The notes under the pieces are model-generated. The model was given only the letters and a program-made list of their open reading frames with translations. It was not told the origin of the DNA and did no database searches. A program made the translations under genes and the position numbers. From Nitrosarchaeum sp. (GTDB taxonomy: Archaea > Thermoproteota > Nitrososphaeria > Nitrososphaerales > Nitrosopumilaceae): a stretch of 64,000 bases of DNA. The DNA lies in the NCBI GenBank assembly GCA_965223865.1, contig OZ245020.1:224001-288000 (forward strand), read 5' to 3'. Below are positions 18,648 through 49,532 of the stretch, piece by piece. Each line of letters starts with the position of its first letter. Position 1 is the stretch's first letter.

Positions 18648-20054
18648 TTAGGGGATGTAAACTGTATCCTCATCTATTTTGGTGTGTTTTGAAACCTTTG
18701 AATCTGTTTTCTTTTTTAGATCATCAAGATATCTGCTTATCATTGCAATTCCATCTACAATTTTTGGTGCATTGCTTTTAACAAACTCTATCTTATCTGA
18801 ACTTGTCTTGGGAGGATTATTGATATAATCCTCCATTGCCTTTTTGCCGTTATAATCAACAAATGCGATTCTGGCACTAAAGTCAGTTCTCTCCAAAACT
18901 AGGCTGTCACCTCCAACCAAGGCAGTATGATATGGATGCTGAATCAAGGATTCGGAGAATTTCTGTGAGGTTGTTATCTTGTTTGCAAGAAGATCATCTT
19001 TGTATGCATTAAAATTGGCCAACAGATAAAATGTAGATTCAGGCTTGGTGGTCTTTACTCCTTCAATCTCATTTAACGCATTGTATGTGTATCCTCCCAT
19101 AATTTGGTGAATTCTCCTTGTTATCTCAAAATATTCTTCCATCTCTATGCTTTCAGAAAAGCCTGCTATAGCAGCATGTTGAATTGGTGTGGAGGTAGCC
19201 GTATATTCAGTTGCAAGAATCTTCTTGAACTGTTGTTTGAGTTCAGTGGCGTGTTGTGGAAATATCACATATCCTAATCTGTATCCTCCAGCTGCATGAG
19301 ATTTTGAGAGACCATTTGTGACAAAAGTTCCCTCAGGATATATCTTTCCCATGCTTACAAATTTGTTGATGTCATATGTTGTAAGAGCATAAATCTCATC
19401 TGAAATAACAAGAATGTTATGCTTCCTGCAAACATCGGTTATCTCTTCTAATTCGAGTTGTGTGTACACCAGTCCAGTTGGGTTGTTTGGGTTATTTAGA
19501 ATCAAGATCTTTTGCCTGTCATGTAATCGCAAAGTAAGATGTTCGAGCTCATTTGGAGTTATCTTTCCAGTTTTGGCAACATGTAACATGTGATAATTTT
19601 TCTTTAAAAATCGGATCTGTGGCAAATATCCAAGCCATGCAGGAGTTGGAAGTATGACTGTACCATGTAAAATTTCCAACAGATTAAAGATAAGCTCCTT
19701 TGTTCCAGGTCCAACATAGACTCTCCTAGGATCAACATCTATCTGGAAATTCCTCTTATTATACTGGGATATTGCCTCTCTAAGATCTTGGATTCCTGAA
19801 ACGCCTGCATATGCCCCCTTGTCAGCATTTTCTATTAGTGCTTTTTTTACAGGTTCAGGTACAGGAAAAGGAGACTGACCAAAGGCAAAACCATAAAATC
19901 CAAAACTGCATTCAGGATGTGGACAATCTGAATGAAACTCTTGTAAGAAAGTGTTTAGCTTGAGATTTTCTGGCATCTCAATGTCTTCTACCTGTTGGTC
20001 AATTACGAATTTTGTCAAATCCTGTATCTCTTTATTCAGCCTCTTCAGAATCAA
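18648..20054 (-). CDS. PLP-dependent class I/II aminotransferase (start may be slightly downstream)
   Basis: GQSPFPVP, NNPNNPTG, SDEIY and GLSKSHAAGGYRLG (PLP-binding lysine). Confidence 0.9.
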   Translation of the reverse strand: MILKRLNKEIQDLTKFVIDQQVEDIEMPENLKLNTFLQEFHSDCPHPECSFGFYGFAFGQSPFPVPEPVKKALIENADKGAYAGVSGIQDLREAISQYNKRNFQIDVDPRRVYVGPGTKELIFNLLEILHGTVILPTPAWLGYLPQIRFLKKNYHMLHVAKTGKITPNELEHLTLRLHDRQKILILNNPNNPTGLVYTQLELEEITDVCRKHNILVISDEIYALTTYDINKFVSMGKIYPEGTFVTNGLSKSHAAGGYRLGYVIFPQHATELKQQFKKILATEYTATSTPIQHAAIAGFSESIEMEEYFEITRRIHQIMGGYTYNALNEIEGVKTTKPESTFYLLANFNAYKDDLLANKITTSQKFSESLIQHPYHTALVGGDSLVLERTDFSARIAFVDYNGKKAMEDYINNPPKTSSDKIEFVKSNAPKIVDGIAMISRYLDDLKKKTDSKVSKHTKIDEDTVYIP

Positions 20055-20115
20055 TCTGATATATTATCTTCACTATATCTTTCCAAAATTTGATTCATTC
20101 ATCTGAAATGGATTT

Positions 20116-20205
20116 TTAGTGAGTCTTTTCATGTGTTATTACTTTTTCAAAAGTATCAATATTTCTCTCCCAGTGAAAGATGCAATTCTTGCAATGATAT
20201 TTCAT
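20116..20205 (-). CDS. C2H2 zinc-finger microprotein (MKYHCKNCIFHWERNIDTFEKVITHEKTH)
   Basis: Hand translation. CxxC...HxxxH; paralogue at 24217-24366; ATGA overlap with the upstream ORF. Confidence 0.65.
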   Translation of the reverse strand: MKYHCKNCIFHWERNIDTFEKVITHEKTH

Positions 20206-20309
20206 TGTAACTTGTCCTCCCTTCTAAGAAATTGCTTTGAGACGCTAGCAATAGCATTGTAAATTCTGTATTCTGCAATGTACAATGAGGTCTTAATTGT
20301 TTCTAACAT
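20202..20309 (-). CDS. 35-aa microprotein (MLETIKTSLYIAEYRIY...)
   Basis: Homologous to 24363-24473 (MMLETIETSLYLLKYRVY...); preceded by AGGAGG. Confidence 0.55.
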   Translation of the reverse strand: MLETIKTSLYIAEYRIYNAIASVSKQFLRREDKLQ

Positions 20310-20473
20310 GTTTCAGGATCATCCTCCTTTGCAAGTATCCAAGACAGACCCATCATGTCCATGGCAGAAATATTGCCATCGGATGGGGAAAGGAGTCTAG
20401 TCTTCCTCTCCCCATCCATTACAAGAGATGACTGGTCGGATTTCTGAGTGTTTAGTATGATTTGTTGCATCAT
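20303..20473 (-). CDS. Leaderless 56-aa leader ORF containing a strong hairpin
   Basis: ATG lies ~23 nt below a TATA-like CTTAATAC. Homologous to 24474-24629. Hairpin at 20381-20417. Confidence 0.4.
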   Translation of the reverse strand: MMQQIILNTQKSDQSSLVMDGERKTRLLSPSDGNISAMDMMGLSWILAKEDDPETC

Positions 20474-20558
20474 GGAATGATTATGAAACAAGTCAGTATT
20501 AAGGCAGGAAAATTTTGATTTGAGATGATCCGTCGATAGCTGGTTGATTAAATTCTGA

Positions 20559-20879
20559 ATGAAATCAACCCTTACTTGGATTAATAGAAACGTCATCCGT
20601 GTTTGCAACAAGGTAAACAAAACCTTTGGAGGTGAAAACAACAATGTTGCCGACAAATCACTGTATACCGTGATTTTAGTAGCCACTATCTTGGCTTACC
20701 ACTTTCACACATCACACCTAAACCACGATGACAACGAACACGATCACAAAACCGACGTACTAAAGGTCAAAAACGTCTCGTGCGAAGGCGGTGCATGTGA
20801 TGAAAAAAACGATCATAACCATGATCACAAGAAGAGGAGAAAGACACAAACCATGAAAACATTTGGTTTGAACAAATAG
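20559..20879 (+). CDS. His-rich small protein with hydrophobic segment, possibly frameshifted at the 5' end
   Basis: LYTVILVATILA is followed by an H/D-rich tail. A GGAGGTGA RBS precedes an out-of-frame ATG at ~20644. T-rich terminator follows. Confidence 0.4.
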   Translation: MKSTLTWINRNVIRVCNKVNKTFGGENNNVADKSLYTVILVATILAYHFHTSHLNHDDNEHDHKTDVLKVKNVSCEGGACDEKNDHNHDHKKRRKTQTMKTFGLNK

Positions 20880-20946
20880 TTTTTCTCTATTTTTTTATTT
20901 TATACTACAATCAATGAAGCAACGATTCATTTTATTGATTGACAGG

Positions 20947-21210
20947 CTAGGCCACCACTATTACTGGCAACATATGCAACGCCCACCCAATCAATTCGCT
21001 TTTTTTGTGCTCCCACCTGTAGTGCTCAGCAGTGTGCCTCTTGTCTGCAAATCTTTCTGAATATGCACAAAATACGCACGAATCTGAGACATCACACAAG
21101 GCATGGATTATCTCTTCTCTGTGTCTTGCCAGATGGATAAGCCATTGGGTTTTGTCTGCTGTTACATGCCTCTCATTAAAGCAGTATGAGCACATGCCAG
21201 AGAGGTACAT
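20947..21210 (-). CDS. Tandem C2H2 zinc-finger protein (87 aa, start MYLSGM)
   Basis: CSYC...HLARH and CVFC...HYRWEH; TAATG overlap with the upstream Cys-rich ORF. Confidence 0.7.
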   Translation of the reverse strand: MYLSGMCSYCFNERHVTADKTQWLIHLARHREEIIHALCDVSDSCVFCAYSERFADKRHTAEHYRWEHKKSELIGWALHMLPVIVVA

Positions 21211-21380
21211 TATTGCTGTGCCACCTGAGATTTTTTCAGAGTCCAGAGATCTTGGTTGATTGCATGGCATTTGCAGTCTGGAGACTTTTCCTTGCAGGTT
21301 TTCTGATGCAGTTTTGCATCACATTTGTTGCATGAAGGATCTCTCCAAGACGCATTGTTTCCACAAGTTCCGCAGATCAT
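21210..21380 (-). CDS. Cys-rich microprotein (56 aa; MICGTC...CNKC...H...C...CKCH)
   Basis: Hand translation. Two CxxC plus CxCH; its stop overlaps the next start. Confidence 0.65.
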   Translation of the reverse strand: MICGTCGNNASWRDPSCNKCDAKLHQKTCKEKSPDCKCHAINQDLWTLKKSQVAQQ

Positions 21381-21737
21381 TTTTTGTATCTTCTAAAGAT
21401 TAATACTGTGTTTCCTGATAATTAAGGAGAATGAGAATTGATTTCATTTGAAATGAAAACAACTGGATTCATGCAAAAATAAAGTCATTATAAAAGCGGA
21501 TTAATTCATGATGTAAAGCAAAAAACGCTATTGGTTATTTACTCTTCATCAATTTTTGACTTTCTCTTTCTTCCCAAATTTGGACCTCCAAAGAAATCAT
21601 AACTATACAGGATAAAATCTAGAATGTTTTTGATAATAGTCAAAATGAAATCAACTGATTGTTCTCGTTTTGTATCAGTACAATTTCAAAATGTCTTTTT
21701 TAGACAAAGGTAACTCAAAGTGATTGAATGAAAATGA

Positions 21738-21920
21738 ATGCCAAACATAATGAGAAAAAGTGGTGGAAAAAATCCAGACAAAATTGCAGATACTGTGGAA
21801 ATGCTGTTGATGAAACACACGTATACTGTTCAAGAGAATGTGAAAAGAGAGATGGCGCCTGGAATTTTAATTAAGAAACATGAAGAAAAAGAAGAGGAAA
21901 AAATTATTTGCAGCCGATGA
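21738..21920 (+). CDS. Hypothetical 60-aa protein
   Basis: ORF track; heads a run of co-oriented small ORFs. Confidence 0.4.
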   Translation: MPNIMRKSGGKNPDKIADTVEMLLMKHTYTVQENVKREMAPGILIKKHEEKEEEKIICSR

Positions 21921-21926
21921 AACAGA

Positions 21927-22025
21927 ATGAATGTAAAGTGTAAAAACTGTGGAAAAGATTTTGAATTATTTAATTCGGAATTTTGTAGTATGTAATGCAG
22001 TAAAAGATACTATCTAAATATGTGA
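21927..22025 (+). pseudogene. TRASH/MYM-like zinc-finger microprotein with internal stop (CKNC...FCSM*CS)
   Basis: In-frame TAA inside the FCSxxC motif; intact paralogue at 25635-25739. Confidence 0.55.
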
Positions 22026-22031
22026 TAAGAG

Positions 22032-22208
22032 ATGCCAGGATATCTTGGAAATAAATCAACTAATATAGTGCATCTCCTGTCTGAAATGAAAAAAGAGTGT
22101 AAAATTGTAGAAATAAAAATGGAAGACAGGCAATATTTTACTCCTGATAATCTGAACACTGCTGAAAAACAGAATTTTTCCCCATGCAGATGGTGTATAA
22201 AAAACTAA
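22032..22208 (+). CDS. Ada metal-binding-domain-like microprotein (58 aa)
   Basis: YLGNKSTNIVH...C...YF...A...FSPCRWC matches the stand-alone Ada-type Zn domain pattern. Confidence 0.65.
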   Translation: MPGYLGNKSTNIVHLLSEMKKECKIVEIKMEDRQYFTPDNLNTAEKQNFSPCRWCIKN

Positions 22209-22439
22209 ATTGGGATGTCTTGGACAAGCATATCCTTAATGAAGTATAACAATGACTCTTGAATCTCTAGTTAAAATTGGACGTATAGACATGTAACCTC
22301 GAAAATGGCTAATAGCAAAGAAGGTAAAGTAAACAGCATAGTTATTCCTCAACACATATTTTTAATCTGAATTTTTACTCCTTTTGTTTACTTTATTGGA
22401 TTATCACTGGCTAATTAGATAGATCACTTCTCAGATAAA

Positions 22440-22502
22440 ATGGCAAAAGCAAAGAAAGCCTCAACAACCAAGAAAACTGCAGCAAAGAAGACCAAGAAGT
22501 AA
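22440..22502 (+). CDS. Lys/Ala-rich 20-aa peptide MAKAKKASTTKKTAAKKTKK (histone H1-like composition)
   Basis: Clean ATG..TAA with strongly biased composition, followed by a T-rich terminator. Confidence 0.55.
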   Translation: MAKAKKASTTKKTAAKKTKK

Positions 22503-23404
22503 ATCTGATCTTCTAACCTTTTTTCTACTTTCTTACAATTATGAAATGAAAATACTCATCTGATACAGATTTTATGGTTGCAACAATTATTGCAATGATG
22601 ACAAGATAAGATGAGCCAACTTTTCACAAAGTTAATTAACTTGAGTTAATCCTGCATTTTCATGATAGGGTTCTGTCACAAATGTCACCGTTCGGGGATT
22701 GAGGTTCTAAAAACTACAGTTTTGCTAAGTGAAGTTGGAGCTGTAGATATTCCACTATGTGTTAATTGTAGAGAGAATTGATTTTCAACTAGGTGTGAAA
22801 GTAATGGAAAACTGTGTAGTTTGTGGCAAAAAGACCTACGAAAATAATAACAATTATTGTTCTTACCAGTGTGAGTTTTTTGCATCTTGCACAGGAAGGA
22901 AATTCTACAATAAAAAAGAACTGCAATAGTTTTACTTATTCAACAAGATAACCACACTGGAATTACTGTCATTTTAGATTCTCATTTGTATCTGGATTAA
23001 AATTTTGTTTATTATTTATCAACGAATGTTGAGGTTGAAAATTAACTACTCTTTCTAAGAAAAGCAATAATGATAAAGGAATTTTTTGAGTTCATTTGGG
23101 ATTTGATATCAGGAAACTAATTTTTTCTCATCCTATATTTCAATTTAGACTGTTTACATAGATACTCCGGTATTTTTTACCTAGTTTTTAAGATAATATT
23201 TTTCAGAGCATTCCTTGCAGCAAAATTCACTTGTGAATAATTCGAATTTTTTGTTACAATTTTTACAGTTTGTTATCATTTTTGTACATGATGTGCAATG
23301 AATCTAGTATAAGAACTTGATAGCAATGGAGTATTTGTGAATGGGTGGGTTGAAACTGTTTACTTGTCTACTATAATACATAGTTTCATTTCTGAAAATT
23401 TGGC

Positions 23405-23938
23405 ATGGCACACACTAAACCAGTAGTTGAAATAGTCAATGTAGTAGCTTCGGCAACAATCGAGCAAAGACTAGATCTTTTAGATATAACAAAAAAATTT
23501 CCAGATGTAGAATATAACCCTGACCAATTTCCGGGAGCAGTTTTCAGGCTTCATAACCCAAAGACTGCCACACTGCTATTTGGTTCAGGAAAGATGGTGT
23601 GTACAGGTGCAAAATCAGCAGAGATGGCCATCAAGGCAGTTAACACCGTTGTTCAAAAGCTAAGAAAAGGCAAGATCAAAATCAAAAACGAACCAATAGT
23701 CACAGTACAAAATATTGTATCATCGATTAATCTGGGAGGAAAGGTCAGTCTGGAACAAGCAGCTAGAACGTTACCAAGAAGCATGTACGAGCCCGAACAA
23801 TTTCCAGGAATGATTCACAGAATGCTTGATCCAAAAACGGTAATTCTGATTTTTGCATCAGGAAAGCTAGTATGCGTTGGAGCAAAAAGAGAGGAAGAAA
23901 TACACCGTTCTGTAAACAATATTCACAGTGAACTTTAG
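23405..23938 (+). CDS. tbp: TATA-box binding protein (island copy; TAG truncates the C-terminal ~9 aa)
   Basis: NVVAS, YNPDQFPG and GSGKMVCTGAKS, with a second repeat YEPEQFPG. The frame continues EKNLMDYD* to 23965 after the TAG. Confidence 0.92.
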   Translation: MAHTKPVVEIVNVVASATIEQRLDLLDITKKFPDVEYNPDQFPGAVFRLHNPKTATLLFGSGKMVCTGAKSAEMAIKAVNTVVQKLRKGKIKIKNEPIVTVQNIVSSINLGGKVSLEQAARTLPRSMYEPEQFPGMIHRMLDPKTVILIFASGKLVCVGAKREEEIHRSVNNIHSEL

Positions 23939-24093
23939 GAGAAAAATCTGATGGATTATGACTAACTGAAATTAATAATAAAATTATACAAAATCAATCC
24001 GACTTGTCCTACGAAATAGACGATAATATGCTCACGTGGAATAAAGAATCATCAAAAAATCTACTATATGTTAAAATGCTAATAATCATCAAA

Positions 24094-24216
24094 TCATTTT
24101 GATGTTATGTGGATAATTTTTTGGCATCTCACACATTCGTATATGTCCTTGAATCCTCCCATCTTGACTTTTGAATCGTGAGGGCAAGTATCTTGAGTTA
24201 CTGTTCTGTATGCCAA
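24094..24216 (-). CDS. 40-aa zinc-ribbon microprotein (CPH...YECVRC)
   Basis: TTG start immediately after the upstream stop, GGAGA upstream, CxH...CxxC motif. Confidence 0.6.
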   Translation of the reverse strand: MAYRTVTQDTCPHDSKVKMGGFKDIYECVRCQKIIHITSK

Positions 24217-24366
24217 TTAATTTTCTATCTCCATCATCATATTCTCTTTTGATAATTTATCATCTGAAATGGATTTTTTGTGAGTTTTTTCATGAGCAAT
24301 TACTTTTTCAAATGTATCAATGTTACCTTCCCAATGGAATTTACAATTTTTGCAATTATACTTCAT
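24217..24366 (-). CDS. C2H2 zinc-finger microprotein (MKYNCKNCKFHWEGNIDTFEKVIAHEKTH...)
   Basis: Paralogue of 20116-20205, with mostly synonymous or conservative differences. Confidence 0.65.
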   Translation of the reverse strand: MKYNCKNCKFHWEGNIDTFEKVIAHEKTHKKSISDDKLSKENMMMEIEN

Positions 24367-24473
24367 TTTGATTCCTCGTAATTTCTTCGAAATTGATGTA
24401 AGAAACTAGTACTGGAATAATAAACTCTGTATTTTAGCAAATATAATGAGGTCTCAATTGTTTCTAGCATCAT
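24363..24473 (-). CDS. 36-aa microprotein, paralogue of 20202-20309
   Basis: MMLETIETSLY...; ATGA overlap with the downstream ORF. Confidence 0.55.
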   Translation of the reverse strand: MMLETIETSLYLLKYRVYYSSTSFLHQFRRNYEESK

Positions 24474-24629
24474 TCAAAATTGTACTCCTTTGCAAAGATC
24501 CATGATAATCCCATCTACTCCAGTTATTTCACTCATAATGGTTGGAAGAGGGTTTTTGGCCTCACTTCCAACCAAAGATGACAGTACGGTTTTCTGGCTA
24601 TGTGTGTTTAACATTATTTGTTGTGTCAT
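24474..24629 (-). CDS. Leaderless 51-aa leader ORF containing a hairpin, paralogue of 20303-20473
   Basis: TATA-like CTTAATAC ~22 nt upstream; hairpin at 24539-24574; 3' part is in a different frame from copy 1. Confidence 0.35.
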   Translation of the reverse strand: MTQQIMLNTHSQKTVLSSLVGSEAKNPLPTIMSEITGVDGIIMDLCKGVQF

Positions 24630-25029
24630 GGAATGAGTATGGAATACGCGGTATTAAGACAAGATAATTTTGCTCAAAGATTATCCAAAGAAAACTAGTT
24701 GATTTCGTGCGCGACAAAGTCAACTCGTATAAAACAAGAAGACATGATAATGAAAGAACATATTCAATTTTACATTTTTCTGATGATTAAATTATCCACA
24801 TTGTTTATATCATTGAATTGGTTTGAACCCTTGCCGTCATAAGGTTTGTAGGTACAACCTAGTTGGCAAAATCCACACGGAATGAAAAACCTTCGAAACA
24901 ACTAACTAGTATCGATAATTTTCTTTCATAGACTTGCGTTTCTTCCTGTTTTGTTTTAGATCTTCATCATATTTAGGAAAAAGACTTTCAAATCTGGAAT
25001 CTAATGATTCTTCTGAACTTTCTAGCATC

Positions 25030-25239
25030 TCAATAACCGTATCTGTTTTCAGTCTTCAGAATCTCCTTGTATTTTTTGTAGTGTTCACTGCACAGAATTC
25101 TATCATCTGCATCTTTTCTTATCATTGCCTTCTTGTAACATGAAACATTTTTTTCTATGTCATAAAAGTTGCATTGGCCAGTAGTGTGTAAATCAGATGA
25201 ATTGCCTGATCTAGACTTCATAGAGTGTCTGTCTATCAT
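25030..25239 (-). CDS. Small C-x10-C-x15-C-xx-H protein, possibly frameshifted at the 3' end
   Basis: CNFYDIEKNVSC...LCSEH; an alternative frame continues to ~24905. Confidence 0.5.
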   Translation of the reverse strand: MIDRHSMKSRSGNSSDLHTTGQCNFYDIEKNVSCYKKAMIRKDADDRILCSEHYKKYKEILKTENRYGY

Positions 25240-25316
25240 AGTTTTACAGTTTTAATATATGAAAAGCATATTGTGTTGAATCTACATGAAATCAAGTAGT
25301 TGATTTTATTTTGGTT

Positions 25317-25430
25317 CTATGCAACTTTTATTCCCAGTCCTCGTTCATGGGACTGCTGACAGTAAGGTCAGTCTGGTTGGAGAAAATTAGCTTTATGGAC
25401 CCTGCAATAGTGAGATGTCTTTGGCTTCAC
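25317..25430 (-). pseudogene. Zinc-finger microprotein with TGA at a Cys position (CRVH...D*PYC)
   Basis: GTG start overlaps the upstream stop; in-frame TGA at 25368-25370 in a would-be CPYC. Confidence 0.5.
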
Positions 25431-25522
25431 TTCCATTTTCCTATGTGGCATTCGCATTCACAACCATCCACACACCTCATTCTTGCACAATCACTGCAAC
25501 GACTGTTTTTTGAATGGTTCAA
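25427..25522 (-). CDS. Metallothionein-like 31-aa peptide (CSDC..RC..GCECECH)
   Basis: GGAGG RBS, TTG start, 6 Cys plus His. Confidence 0.55.
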   Translation of the reverse strand: MNHSKNSRCSDCARMRCVDGCECECHIGKWK

Positions 25523-25634
25523 TACTCGTTTCCTCCAGCGCTTGGCCAAAATGAATTTTTTCTGATATTTAAGGAGAATTGTATTTGACTTTCTTCAGTA
25601 TAAAATCAAGTTCTCAAGGATTAATCAAGAAATG

Positions 25635-29780: not shown

Positions 29781-30026
29781 CTAGTTTGAACCAATCAGGG
29801 TCAAGGTGGAATTGACACCATTGATGTATCTGATCTTTGTGTGTACCATGTTTTTTAGTTGTTCATGTGGAATGCTTACCTGTACCAAAACATCATAGAT
29901 TCCTTGAACAGGTATTACATCTGAAATACACGGTATGTTTTTGAGCTCTTTTATTACACTGTTTCTTTTTGTCTCATTACATGTCAACAAAACAAACGAT
30001 GTGCGGTTGTTTTTTGACTCTGACAA
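29781..30026 (-). CDS. Stand-alone Lrp/AsnC ligand-binding domain protein
   Basis: FVLLTC...VQGIYDVLV...KIRYINGVNSTLT pattern. Confidence 0.8.
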   Translation of the reverse strand: MSESKNNRTSFVLLTCNETKRNSVIKELKNIPCISDVIPVQGIYDVLVQVSIPHEQLKNMVHTKIRYINGVNSTLTLIGSN

Positions 30027-30080
30027 GCTTGTAGTTATTATGTTTCTGAATGGTTAAGAGATTTTCTATATAATAAAAGG

Positions 30081-33810: not shown

Positions 33811-35007
33811 ATGCTAAAAGCTAGACATAGCAACGAATTTGGTGGTAAACCAATTGATAATACATTGAATGTTTTAGTGGTTGACAATAATACACTTTTA
33901 ATCAATTTATTAGAAAAATCACTAATTCAAGATAGTGTCAATATTTCTGCAGTTACAAACATAGACGATGCAATACAGTTGCTAAAAGAGAAAATTTTTG
34001 ATGCAGTATTGTGTGATGGTCCTATTGACAACTATTCCAAAGAAACAATTCTGGAGATATTTGAACAGAACAATTTTCTTCGAGATCAAAGAATTGTACT
34101 TTTTAGTGGGTTTACACAACCTGATTTCATTGAAAAATGGAAAAGAAAAGGATTATACAGTCATATAAAAAAACCAACATCTAGAAAAAAAATATTAGAA
34201 TTTTTACAAGCAACAAAAAATGATCCCAACTTAAAAAAAGTCAATTCTCAAACTATTCATGAACAAATTAAGGAGGAAGCTACACCAGAACAGCTAGCTA
34301 AAGTAGAGGAATTAACAAAACAAATTGAAGAATTAGAATCACAATCGACAAAACCAACTCCAAGTATAGAAAGTACACACAAAGCAGAGATTGATTTAGA
34401 ATCAGCTGAACAAACTATAGAAGATGAAACGGAGGAGGAAGCTACACCAGAACAGCTAGCTAAAGTAGAGGAATTAACAAAACAAATTGAAGAATTAGAA
34501 TCACAATCGACAAAACCAACTCCAAGTATAGAAAGTACACACAAAGCAGAGATTGATTTAGAATCAGCTGAACAAACTATAGAAGATGAAACGGAGGAGG
34601 AAGCTACACCAGAACAGCTAGCTAAAGTAGAGGAATTAACAAAACAAATTGAAGAATTAGAATCACAATCGACAAAACCAACTCCAAGTATAGAAAGTAC
34701 ACACAAAGCAGAGATTGATTTAGAATCAGCTGAACAAACTACGTTTGAAACTCAATCTAATAGTGAATTTAAAAATATTTTATCTAAATTAGCTTCTATA
34801 AAAAATCAATTTCTATATAACACATCAGATACATCAGATATAGGCCACACACAAATTATTGAAGAGTTATTTAATCTTAAGAAAGAGATAGGTAAAATAA
34901 GAAGAAAAGTTTACAGATCGCATACAAAACAAAAACGTAGTAAATCTACATCAACACAAAACAAGAAAACAAAAAAACAACATTTATCTAAAAAGAAACA
35001 TAAGTAG
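33811..35007 (+). CDS. Response regulator receiver domain + acidic 54-aa tandem repeats + basic tail
   Basis: VLVVDNN...FDAVLCD...FSG...IKKP, then three EEATPEQLAKVEEL... repeats. Confidence 0.8.
   Translation: MLKARHSNEFGGKPIDNTLNVLVVDNNTLLINLLEKSLIQDSVNISAVTNIDDAIQLLKEKIFDAVLCDGPIDNYSKETILEIFEQNNFLRDQRIVLFSGFTQPDFIEKWKRKGLYSHIKKPTSRKKILEFLQATKNDPNLKKVNSQTIHEQIKEEATPEQLAKVEELTKQIEELESQSTKPTPSIESTHKAEIDLESAEQTIEDETEEEATPEQLAKVEELTKQIEELESQSTKPTPSIESTHKAEIDLESAEQTIEDETEEEATPEQLAKVEELTKQIEELESQSTKPTPSIESTHKAEIDLESAEQTTFETQSNSEFKNILSKLASIKNQFLYNTSDTSDIGHTQIIEELFNLKKEIGKIRRKVYRSHTKQKRSKSTSTQNKKTKKQHLSKKKHK
34272..34741 (+). repeat. 162-bp perfect tandem repeat, ~2.9 copies
   Basis: GCTACACCAG recurs at 34279, 34441 and 34603; the copies appear identical. 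Confidence 0.95.
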
Positions 35008-49120: not shown

Positions 49121-49400
49121 TTGTTAACCAGTCGATTGGTCAAGGTGGAATTGACGCCATTGATGTATTTGATCTTTGTATTTACCATGTTCTTTAGTTG
49201 CTCATGTGGAATGCTTGTACCAAAACATCATAGATTCCTAGAACATGTATTACAACTGAAATATACGGTTGCTTTTGAGCTCTTTTATTACACCATTTCT
49301 TTTTGTCTCATTACATGTTAACAAAACAAACAATATGTTATCATTTTTTTGACTTTGATGAGCCTGTACTATGTTTCTAAACAGTTAAGAGATTTTCTAC
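49121..49400 (-). pseudogene. Frameshifted duplicate of the Lrp/AsnC gene at 29781-30026 plus its upstream region
   Basis: Colinear similarity from GGTCAAGGTGGAATTGAC to GTTAAGAGATTTTCTA, with 4-bp and 1-bp deletions. Confidence 0.8.
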
Positions 49401-49532
49401 ATACTATCATTGGATTACTTATATGCTGTACAACATAAATTGTGATAAAATTACTTTTTGCATTTTTCGTTTGAAATTAATAGATACTTAAAACCTATGA
49501 ATTATTAATTATGGCATAAGACTTGACGATTT

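Follow-up and report, generated by a model that had tools for sequence, protein, structure and literature searches.

An undescribed small-gene family of Nitrosopumilaceae with a covarying hairpin inside its reading frame

In the stretch of Nitrosarchaeum sp. DNA analysed here (the window; 64,000 nucleotides, numbered from its first letter), a unit of three micro-ORFs with an internal RNA hairpin occurs twice, and the question is whether this unit is a regulatory leader, a source of small proteins or both. Both window copies are paralogous members of an undescribed small-gene family.

The two window copies

Repeats D2 (20099-20361 with 24260-24522, 263 nt, 75% identity) and D9 (20445-20488 with 24601-24644, 82% identity) pair the copies within the window, and their full alignment has a mean column identity of 80%, in agreement with the sequence-only reading of two diverged minus-strand copies. 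That reading also held that each copy has a TATA-like box (CTTAATAC, 22 nt above the ATG in copy 1 and 23 nt in copy 2), three abutting or overlapping ORFs and a hairpin at the same ORF position, and all of these are present in both. In copy 1 the leader and mid ORFs share 7 nt, and in copy 2 the mid ORF begins directly after the leader; the mid and finger ORFs are joined by an ATGA overlap in copies 1 and 2 alike. The features are as follows.

20543..20569, minus: class-A upstream palindrome of copy 1, GTTGATTT-N11-AAATCAAC; regex match C1:244543-244569, starting 96 nt above the ATG
20496..20503, minus: TATA-like CTTAATAC of copy 1, read in the sequence above the ATG at 20473; putative promoter
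20303..20473, minus: copy 1 small ORF ("leader"), MMQQIILN...AMDMMGLSWILAKEDDPETC and stop, 56 aa; GLSWIF micro-protein family, profile match 2.9e-30
20381..20417, minus: copy 1 RNA hairpin, predicted 14-bp stem and divergent 9-nt loop, at the ORF place of the family hairpin
20202..20309, minus: copy 1 mid micro-ORF, MLETIKTSLY..., 35 aa, overlapping the leader stop; AAGGAGGA upstream
20116..20205, minus: copy 1 C2H2-type mini zinc finger, 29 aa, TAA-truncated with the stop inside the match; start overlaps the mid stop
18648..19976, minus: class I/II aminotransferase downstream of copy 1 (PF00155, E 1.6e-45)
24698..24724, minus: class-A palindrome of copy 2; regex match C1:248698-248724, at -95
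24651..24658, minus: TATA-like CTTAATAC of copy 2, above the ATG at 24629; putative promoter
24474..24629, minus: copy 2 small ORF, frameshifted after ...EITGVD, the conserved MGLSWIF motif lying in another frame
24539..24574, minus: copy 2 family-type hairpin, 10-bp lower stem, bulged A, CCAAAAA loop
24363..24473, minus: copy 2 mid micro-ORF, MMLETIETSLY..., 36 aa
24217..24366, minus: copy 2 C2H2-type mini zinc finger, 49 aa; ORF with a predicted beta-beta-alpha fold
24094..24216, minus: zinc-ribbon-like ORF with Cys after copy 2, 40 aa; Pfam matches sub-threshold only
21437..21463, minus: related palindrome above a 56-aa Cys-rich ORF (21210-21380); regex, repeat D8
25584..25610, minus: related palindrome above a Cys-rich ORF (25427-25549); regex, repeat D8

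The gene after copy 1 is thus the PLP aminotransferase that had been proposed there, and the 40-aa zinc-ribbon-like sequence after copy 2 also follows copy g4a of genome G004. The cassette had been described as present twice; the genome holds two further leader and mid copies (C1:~777.6-778.0 kb and ~1003.3-1003.6 kb) plus four mini members of the leader family.

Both window copies are partly degenerate. The difference in leader frame between them, noted earlier, is real, but it is a frameshift lesion in copy 2: the conserved C-terminal motif (MGLSWIFAKEYNFE and stop) is out of frame, and the copy 2 leader gives two partial profile matches. Contigs from three DNA runs spanning 20000-24800 showed zero differences, and no indel in the copy 2 leader. 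Copy 1 has an intact leader (dN/dS 0.41 against G004); its loop diverges from the family loop, covariance model R1 has no match there, and a TAA stop, absent from copy 2, shortens its finger to 29 aa. The mid ORF of copy 4 is frameshifted.

The micro-protein family and its companions

The "leader" is a conserved micro-protein that occurs in long forms of 41-73 aa and mini forms of 24-27 aa, with a core motif (A)MDxxGLSW(I/V)F followed by acidic residues and a C-terminal form AMDxxGLSWIF. We recovered 85 non-redundant family ORFs, and a profile search returned 327 database proteins at E<=1e-3, many of them already called and labelled "hypothetical protein", contrary to the expectation that standard gene calling would miss them. 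No Pfam or Rfam family fits the leader, as anticipated, and every match in an Rfam scan of positions 19500-25500 lay far under the gathering score (best E 1.4). Members are found in 46 of 180 Nitrosopumilaceae genomes and in none of 120 genomes from 14 other families of the same class; among the families searched, the family is restricted to Nitrosopumilaceae, a family of ammonia-oxidising archaea. Four long and four mini members are present in the host genome. The four minis lack an internal hairpin and are stand-alone genes; of the three examined, two have a T-tract right after the stop.

The small ORF is open, with its C-terminal motif intact, in six of seven copies across two genomes, which supports its coding status. 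Third codon positions of the motif vary freely, glycine being written GGA 13, GGT 7, GGG 3 and GGC 1 times, with four codons for Leu, four for Ser and three for Ile. The proposed dN/dS check adds support with its values for the leader (mostly 0.25-0.47, range 0.15-0.82) and for the finger (0.08-0.20); the mid peptide has 1.07 (copy 1 against its G004 counterpart). Because it is a conserved micro-protein, encoded also by stand-alone genes of 24-27 aa, the leader is more than an attenuator peptide.

The cassette of leader, mid peptide and finger was confidently found in only two Nitrosarchaeum genomes, where the next cistron is a 35-51-aa peptide and the C2H2-type mini zinc finger follows in four of seven copies. 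The mid peptide has confident matches in only 2 of the 301 genomes searched, and the cassette of three ORFs is therefore not what is conserved. The finger is an independent, widespread family, present in 100 of 301 genomes and often elsewhere in the genome. An AF2 model of the copy 2 finger has a beta-beta-alpha fold (pLDDT ~90 over residues 1-30); a fold search gave C2H2 fingers as top rows (r.m.s.d. 2.0-2.3 Å over 28-32 columns) with nothing at E<=0.001, and comparison with Pfam zf-C2H2 gave no match at E<=1. Its spacing is C-X2-C-X16-H-X3-H, as against X12 in classical fingers.

The hairpin and its place in the transcript

Read from its base, the family hairpin has a lower stem of 11 bp, then a U.U mismatch, a G-C pair and a bulged A, and finally two further pairs under the CCAAAAA loop; it is located about 50 nt into the long-form ORF, within the variable N-terminal half. 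Both window copies fold strongly: copy 1 at -26.5 kcal/mol (z -5.5, 0 of 200 shuffles as good) and copy 2 at -17.6 kcal/mol (z -4.3, 1 of 200), the latter being the top R1 match in the genome (69.1 bits). Copy 1 keeps a strong stem with the loop lost, which simple loop-recognition models do not explain.

The covariation claimed from two copies was borne out in a deeper alignment. Across 27 sequences gathered solely through the protein profile, pairing extends to 87.3% of cells, compared with 74.7+-1.1 in shuffles; two-sided change is seen at 13 of 14 pairs (pair 23-33, for example, is GC in 11, UG in 11, UA in 4 and CG in 1, with zero unpaired). The covariation score is 0.427, against 0.214+-0.018 when shuffled, with 0 of 500 shuffles reaching it and slid controls at most 0.176, statistics that are inflated by kinship among the sequences and by rows picked by loop similarity. 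A 39-sequence set gives the same picture, and among 13 new metagenome variants 72 of the 91 outer-stem cells left free by the search pattern are paired. Members L070 and L100 share the loop and have wholly different stems. Compensatory changes preserve the hairpin even at the cost of amino-acid changes, and a constraint at the RNA level is further supported by its frozen synonymous sites (GGA 14/14, GTT 17/18, AGT 18/20, GCC 20/21, AAA 24/24) and by an excess of G.U over A.C cells. It is not essential to the family, since 45 of the 85 ORFs are without the canonical loop and the minis without an internal hairpin; sub-families there have only short or different predicted hairpins. Searches for a consistent downstream complement of the loop, for a binding partner or alternative structure, and for a terminator/antiterminator alternative found none.

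Upstream of 81 family ORFs, three motifs keep a constant spacing to the ATG. Motif A, the palindrome of the window copies, is found at -96/-95 in 18 of them, motif B in 43 (mostly at -56) and motif C in 7 (at -47), and CTTAATA lies within -36..-18 of most putative class-A promoters. Downstream, the next ORF (>=30 aa) starts within +35 nt at 30 of 50 loci and within +150 nt at 41 of 50; a Shine-Dalgarno-like motif precedes it at 20 of these 41 loci, against a background of 3.6%. A T5+ tract follows the small-ORF stop at 3 of the 41 loci with a near ORF, against 5 of the 9 without. From the near downstream ORFs and the Shine-Dalgarno motifs, the small ORF would usually be the first cistron of an operon. 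Compact genomes often place co-directional genes close together, and regulation cannot be read from position by itself. The genes behind the promoter, small ORF and hairpin include fn3 secreted proteins, riboflavin synthase, Usp, CDGSH, Fer4_19, DUF6659 and others; of the proposed portable regulatory module, what stands is this combination preceding unrelated genes, and not the three-ORF cassette.

Function and likeness to known systems

On balance, the family probably combines a cis-acting RNA hairpin with a leaderless first cistron that codes for a trans-acting micro-protein. The mRNA would be leaderless, with the small ORF opening a polycistronic transcript; the hairpin may serve as a protein-binding site, or as a gate on ribosome transit or RNA decay, and would set micro-protein output and, through translational coupling, that of the downstream cistrons. 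The micro-protein itself would work in trans.

A purely cis-acting leader, in which the nascent W-I-F and acidic tail stall the ribosome near the stop and, with the hairpin, control the next cistron without any trans function, is unlikely. It would suit a first cistron ahead of diverse genes, a motif that in many members lies 7-14 residues short of the stop, a next start that overlaps or abuts the stop at many loci, and a second micro-ORF joined by ATGA overlap ahead of fn3 genes; the motif may also resemble SecM/MifM-type arrest motifs. Against it stand the four stand-alone minis, two of the three examined having a T-tract, the T-tracts at 5 of the 9 long-member loci lacking a near ORF, the position of the hairpin upstream of the putative stall site with no competing structure found, and the lack of runs of regulatory codons. 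A trans-acting dual-function RNA, both mRNA and small regulatory RNA, whose loop (GCCAAAAAC) would seed pairing with other mRNAs, is improbable: loop nucleotides are conserved over variable stems, the family is multi-copy with its own putative promoters, and a near-unchanged hairpin is common to otherwise unlike contigs of one sample, but in an AT-rich genome an A-rich loop of 7 nt will meet many complements by chance, and most members are joined to downstream cistrons. We regard as very improbable that the inverted repeat acts as DNA, either as a site of recombination or as the operator of a dimeric transcription factor. Half-sites that evolve together can look like covariation, and a GTTGA...TCAAC-flavoured palindrome does lie above the promoter in class-A members; yet sense-strand cells are of G.U type in 44 cases and of A.C type in 19, conservation of loop over arms is the reverse of an operator, and the element lies ~50-90 nt inside a transcribed ORF. 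Operators are not known to have 14 contiguous pairs round a 7-nt centre. The lesions described above and the mid-peptide dN/dS would also fit window copies that are decaying duplicates that now do little, irrespective of the family's role elsewhere, a reading as improbable as the dual-function RNA given that promoter, palindrome, start region and finger are still conserved, the copy 1 leader is intact with the dN/dS given above, and the copy 2 hairpin is the best model match in the genome.

Also quite unlikely is a micro-protein that imitates the C-terminal tail of ribosomal stalk protein aP1, binds aEF1A/aEF2 and modulates translation, its synthesis gated by the hairpin. The host aP1 ends in EEAAMEGLSSLFG, and all 30 parsed Nitrosopumilaceae aP1 proteins end in A(M/I)EGL(S/A)(S/A)LFG, to be compared with xAMDxxGLSWIF. 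In Pyrococcus horikoshii aP1, as outlined in PMC4267659, the aEF1A-binding face consists of L100, L103, S104, L106 and F107, and mutants L103S, L106S and F107S abolish binding. The family shares AM(E/D)..GLS.(L/I)F and retains hydrophobic residues, L, S, I and F at the matching factor-binding positions, but profile-profile comparison (hhalign) aligns only 6 columns and is not significant (P 0.059, probability 0.9%), and the loose motif also matches 4 unrelated sites in six-frame translation. The family motif is internal and carries an invariant Trp with no aP1 counterpart, whereas in the account of PMC4267659 the aP1 motif is C-terminal and its terminal carboxylate forms a salt bridge.

The closest known systems include the leaderless short-ORF attenuators of mycobacteria (polycysteine sORFs, "ribulon"), described in bioRxiv 10.1101/834739 as present in many copies per genome ahead of different operons, with RNA structure and ribosome position governing the next cistron. 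Those are bacterial and, by that description, defined by Cys codon runs with the peptide not conserved, whereas the archaeal family has a conserved peptide motif, structure inside the ORF and no sensory codons seen. Sinorhizobium peTrpL, as presented in PMC7298713, is also a small 5'-leader ORF whose peptide has its own function; it belongs to another domain of life, has no sequence relation to the family, and its attenuator has the terminator/antiterminator not found here. The finger was compared with the small archaeal zinc-finger regulators Brz (PMC2253796) and the Haloferax micro-proteins (PMC6562870), the latter described as C(P)XCG type, unlike the C2H2-type mini finger. With classical C2H2 fingers, including the small archaeal and viral ones covered in PMC3541406, it shares a single Cys2-His2 set, a predicted beta-beta-alpha fold and a stand-alone micro-protein form, differing in its X16 spacing; zinc and nucleic-acid binding are putative.

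A micro-protein gene family restricted to the Nitrosopumilaceae

Two related units lie on the minus strand of the window:

20097–20575, minus strand, copy 1 unit, a diverged version of the copy 2 unit
about 24258–24730, minus strand, copy 2 unit, a diverged version of the copy 1 unit

Both are present as the sequence-only reading described them. The window repeat search gives 75% identity over the 263 nt of repeat D2 and 82% in repeat D9, mean column identity in the full alignment is 80%, and the hairpins of both copies fold stably (copy 1, −26.5 kcal/mol, z −5.5; copy 2, −17.6 kcal/mol, z −4.3). Each copy opens with an 8+11+8-nt palindrome, GTTGAYTT-N11-AARTCAAC, followed by a conserved stretch closing with CTTAATAC, 22–23 nt upstream of an ATG. 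Following this are a small first ORF, the leader (56 aa in copy 1, 51 aa in copy 2), a second or mid ORF of 35–36 aa starting MLETI.TSLY, which in copy 1 overlaps the stop of the first (ATGTTAG) and in copy 2 abuts it, and a Cys2-His2 finger ORF, the ATG of which overlaps the TGA of the mid ORF in each copy. Downstream of copy 1 is a class I/II aminotransferase (PF00155, E 1.6e-45), a 40-aa Cys-containing ORF comes after copy 2, and a TBP gene sits between the two. In one sample, the contigs of three DNA runs span 20000–24800 and show no difference. An origin from a virus or mobile element was rejected: the hairpin pattern had no matches in viral contigs, and genes of housekeeping type (CDC48, GatD/GatE, thermosome and Hsp20) occupy the flanks. 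On the opposite strand, a His-rich 106-aa ORF (20559–20879, plus strand; HDDNEHDH...NDHNHDH) has its ATG within the copy 1 palindrome, and shows a weak, sub-threshold match to a ZIP transporter loop.

Elsewhere in this 2.01-Mb genome are two extra leader and mid copies without a finger (contig C1, ~777.6 kb and ~1003.3 kb), and a second Nitrosarchaeum genome (G004) holds three copies. Six of the seven copies of the two genomes have an open first ORF; in copy 2 it is frameshifted after EITGVD, with the conserved tail readable in another frame. Copy 4 carries a frameshift in the mid ORF, and in copy 1 a TAA cuts the finger short.

The leader recurs beyond the genus. A six-sequence leader profile matched 45 of 301 genomes, and 8 of 27 genera, of the taxonomic family, and the matched places yielded 85 non-redundant ORFs, 81 of them full-length (41–73 aa, median 55). 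With a 74-sequence profile, matches were found in 46 of 180 Nitrosopumilaceae genomes and in none of 120 genomes from 14 other families of the class, so that the leader, which the sequence-only reading took as part of a regulatory module, is also a conserved protein of a family-restricted gene family. A profile search of a large protein collection gave 327 relatives at E ≤ 1e-3; the 120 listed are all annotated as hypothetical proteins of Nitrosopumilus, Nitrosarchaeum or Nitrosopumilaceae, with an empty precomputed Pfam column throughout. Homologues are on public record for Nitrosopumilus adriaticus (NADRNF5_1101) and N. ureiphilus. The 74-sequence alignment shows a conserved core, (A)MDxxGLSW(I/V)F with acidic residues after it, and a variable N-terminal half. 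Within the core, codons differ freely at their third positions, the pattern expected of a translated gene.

Barely more than this core are four mini members in the genome, of 24–27 aa (for example, M.NQS..WEEV.GLSWIF.(D/E)(D/E/N)(N)(E)-stop). Their own upstream motif was seen in all three examined, and a T-tract directly after the stop in two of these. Two mini members (C1 ~745.2 kb, plus strand, and ~1982.5 kb, minus strand) share a GC-rich hairpin ~110–160 nt upstream, GGAT(T/G)GGGC...GCCCA(A/T)(T/C)C with a T-rich run after it, which may be the terminator of the preceding gene or a separate element.

The inability to assign the module to a known family was borne out: a Pfam HMM search at E ≤ 1 found nothing for the leader (submitted as 55 aa) or either mid peptide, and Rfam release 15 gave eight matches off the hairpins, the best of which (E 1.4) scored 22.1 bits where the gathering score is 53. 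The Protein Atlas gave no usable match for the query (best score 0.86). A literature search, supplementary files being outside its scope, found nothing on the GLSWIF micro-gene family, and the accessible part of PMC5069720 makes no mention of it. The original observation is confirmed and extended; the family offers a covarying RNA structure absent from Rfam and a conserved micro-protein without a Pfam family.

The reading as a portable regulatory module is partly right: the three-ORF cassette is not itself the portable unit, which consists of the promoter, small ORF and hairpin. Confident matches to the mid peptide are confined to this genome and G004 (2 of 301 genomes); four other matches are marginal. 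Selection on the separate ORFs is evident for the finger, whose dN/dS of 0.08–0.20 indicates strong purifying selection; dN/dS of the mid peptide runs from 0.11 to 1.07. The finger family occurs in 100 of 301 genomes (one unpublished genome, G275, included) and 12 of 27 genera, in up to seven copies. This genome also has finger-only genes, which lie on contig C1 near 1.56 Mb in a separate island made up of tiny Cys-rich ORFs; three finger genes are found there between 1.560 and 1.566 Mb, together with several Cys-rich mini-proteins such as MICNKCYNEHHDQCMGKAGMFDCSCKCFKK.

Invariant in the finger alignment are C5, C8, H25 and H29, giving a spacing of C-X2-C-X16-H-X3-H. Classical C2H2 fingers have the spacing Cys-X2-4-Cys-X12-His-X3-5-His, so the X16 of this finger departs from the X12 of Pfam zf-C2H2, whereas the ββα fold of the classical fingers is also predicted for it (AF2 model with strands 2–4 and 11–13 and helix 20–30; pLDDT 87–92 for residues 1–30). 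A Foldseek search with this model gave no match at E ≤ 0.001, C2H2 fingers being among the top rows; Pfam gave no significant match (only a sub-threshold HHA), and a profile search of the PDB nothing below E 0.09.

A covarying RNA hairpin embedded in the coding sequence

Inside the leader ORF of 40 of the 85 family members is a hairpin of 36–40 nt, starting mostly 42–57 nt past the A of the ATG, with the consensus CUGGUUGGAAG-U-G-A-(U/G)G-CCAAAAA-C(G/C/A)-C-U-CUUCCAACCAG. In 27 distinct, mutually related sequences, fetched via the protein profile alone and with hairpin rows picked by loop likeness, 87.3% of cells are paired (74.7 ± 1.1 in shuffles), 13 of 14 pairs show two-sided changes, and the covariation score is 0.427 against 0.214 ± 0.018 in shuffles, matched by none of 500. 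Slid controls scored at most 0.176, and adding 12 pattern-fetched sequences left the outcome the same. The covariation noticed between the two window copies thus persists in a deeper alignment, and the hairpin is a selected RNA structure embedded in an ORF.

One pair is formed by the third base of an Asp/Glu codon and the first base of an Ala/Pro/Thr codon (GC 11, UG 11, UA 4, CG 1); as it is unpaired in none of the sequences, the amino acids change together in a way that preserves the RNA pair. Synonymous sites within the hairpin are near-invariant (Gly GGA 14/14, Val GTT 17/18, Ser AGT 18/20, Ala GCC 20/21 and Lys AAA 24/24), and the same amino acids use three or four codons each when they occur in the C-terminal core. 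Protein and RNA constraints overlap here, the RNA prevailing over the amino-acid sequence, and the GLSWIF family is an example of both acting on one sequence. The same loop is carried by wholly different stems in two members. The excess of G·U over A·C cells (44 versus 19) points to sense-strand RNA.

In this genome a covariance model matches only cassette copies, missing copy 1 because its loop has diverged; a hit at C1:511147 has no stem and was discarded as spurious. Across 151 genomes the model matches in 18, and all matches examined fall in family ORFs, new sub-types among them. Thirteen more variants came from metagenomes, with 72 of 91 outer-stem cells paired, these cells being unconstrained by the search pattern; one of the 13 resembles a chance match. 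For the other half of the family, predicted hairpins are only short or different.

Several candidate identities or extensions of the hairpin were rejected. The loop has no consistent downstream complement in 42 loci with which to form a pseudoknot, a 5′ hairpin covering the start codon is predicted in some copies and is not conserved, and the defining sequence features of integron attC sites, K-turns, C/D boxes, BHB motifs and tRNA-anticodon mimics are not visible in the hairpin. Contigs of the sample assembly (runs X1–X4) break at the hairpin of copy 2 (24539–24575), and 3.6–4.3 kb contigs from other loci or organisms have only its 33–37 nt in common, with one mismatch.

Upstream motifs and first-cistron position

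Among 81 family ORFs with sufficient upstream sequence, palindrome A starts at −96/−95 in 18, motif B (AAGGCATGCCACAAA) is present in 43, mostly at −56, and a third motif lies at −47 in 7; 13 have none of the three. These motifs stand at fixed distances from the ATG, and a TATA-like box follows at about −30 to −23. Spacing this rigid fits a transcription start at the ATG, from which we infer leaderless transcription. Palindromes related to that of the window copies lie at 21437–21463 and 25584–25610, upstream of two other tiny Cys-rich ORFs.

At 50 non-redundant loci (1.5-kb flanks, next ORF of at least 30 aa), the next ORF starts within +35 nt of the small-ORF stop in 30 and within +150 nt in 41. 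An SD-like motif at −20 to −4, often GGAGGAGGUG, precedes 20 of these 41 near ORFs (3.6% at random ATGs), and a tract of at least five Ts after the small-ORF stop is found in 3 of the 41, versus 5 of the 9 loci without a near ORF. The small ORF usually stands in first-cistron position, before cistrons that are coupled to it or SD-led. The tail past GLSWIF in several members doubles as the SD of the next cistron (KEDD = AAGGAGGAUGAU, KRRCI-stop = AAGAGGAGGUGU...). At five loci (L032, L034, L035, L038 and L040) a second conserved micro-ORF, M(R/K)K.GH..F.S..LE.FK-stop, lies between the family ORF and genes for fn3 or other secreted proteins, and is joined to the main gene by an ATGA overlap. The tail (I/L)LE.(F/Y/L)K-stop also closes some long family members and 45-aa mid peptides.

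The next genes are diverse, among them four fn3-repeat proteins, riboflavin synthase, Usp, zf-CDGSH, Fer4_19, DUF6659, SHOCT, Fic and GNAT; many others lack a Pfam match and have N-terminal hydrophobic stretches, read by eye as putative signal peptides. A tiny Cys-rich ORF at 25427–25549 (minus strand; ...RCSDCARMRCVDGCECECH...) has a counterpart at locus L043 of another genus, where RCQDCMRIKCTKGCICDCH is placed 3 nt downstream of a family member; this suggests a recurrent link between the GLSWIF family and Cys-rich mini-proteins.

Possible modes of action

The hairpin would be a cis-acting element that affects how the first cistron is translated or how stable it is and, via this cistron, would influence the rest of the operon; the GLSWIF micro-protein would act in trans, because the mini members stand alone. 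A trp-type leader-peptide attenuator likewise has a short 5′ ORF ahead of regulated genes (here 41 of 50 loci, 20 of the 41 SD-led). Such an attenuator also has mutually exclusive terminator and antiterminator structures, with a U-tract after the terminator, and runs of codons for the sensed amino acid. The sequences read here show no T-run past the hairpin, and the 74-sequence leader alignment has no sensory codon runs. By analogy, the closest working counterpart is the mycobacterial leaderless sORF attenuator, which is defined by sensory codons and an RBS-sequestering duplex (10.1101/834739). The sORF of that system starts at the mRNA 5′ end, a position that the fixed motifs (−96, −56 and −47) and the TATA-like box fit; by inspection, the hairpin 3′ arm CUCUUCC could pair with GGAGGAG, one of the pairs being G·U.

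A different possible role, acting on translation at large, is suggested by a resemblance noticed post hoc, by inspection, between the GLSWIF core and the tail of the ribosomal stalk protein aP1. This tail is AMEGLSSLFG in 21 of the 30 genomes parsed and conforms to A(M/I)EGL(S/A)(S/A)LFG in all of them. The hydrophobic face through which Pyrococcus aP1 binds aEF1A (L100/L103/S104/L106/F107; PMC4267659) is, by the same post hoc inspection, matched by the core. The aP1 motif, however, is the extreme C-terminus with a free carboxylate, whereas 2–17 residues follow the F of the family, and hhalign of the family against the aP1 tail is not significant (P 0.059 over 6 columns). We consider it improbable that the micro-proteins are stalk-tail decoys that titrate translational GTPases and throttle translation, their synthesis gated by the hairpin and three promoter-operator classes; if they were, they would form a family-specific, multi-copy translation-control system in ammonia-oxidising archaea.

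In the sea, as in many soils and sediments, Nitrosopumilaceae rank with the most abundant archaea. To our knowledge, almost nothing has been established about post-transcriptional control in this group, and we know of no genetic system for it. Occurring one to eight times per genome and preceding secreted and stress-related genes, the hairpin, micro-protein and three rigidly spaced promoter-operator motifs offer a compact, testable way into regulons, leaderless operon translation and small-protein function.

Other repeats are present in the window. A second diverged direct-repeat pair of ~280 nt (29799–30075 and 49138–49406; repeat families D3–D5 and D10) is 19.3 kb apart, with 85–92% identity in blocks, and three tandem 162-nt units with 95% identity (34249–34741) fall within an ORF at 33811–35007 that carries a response-regulator receiver domain.
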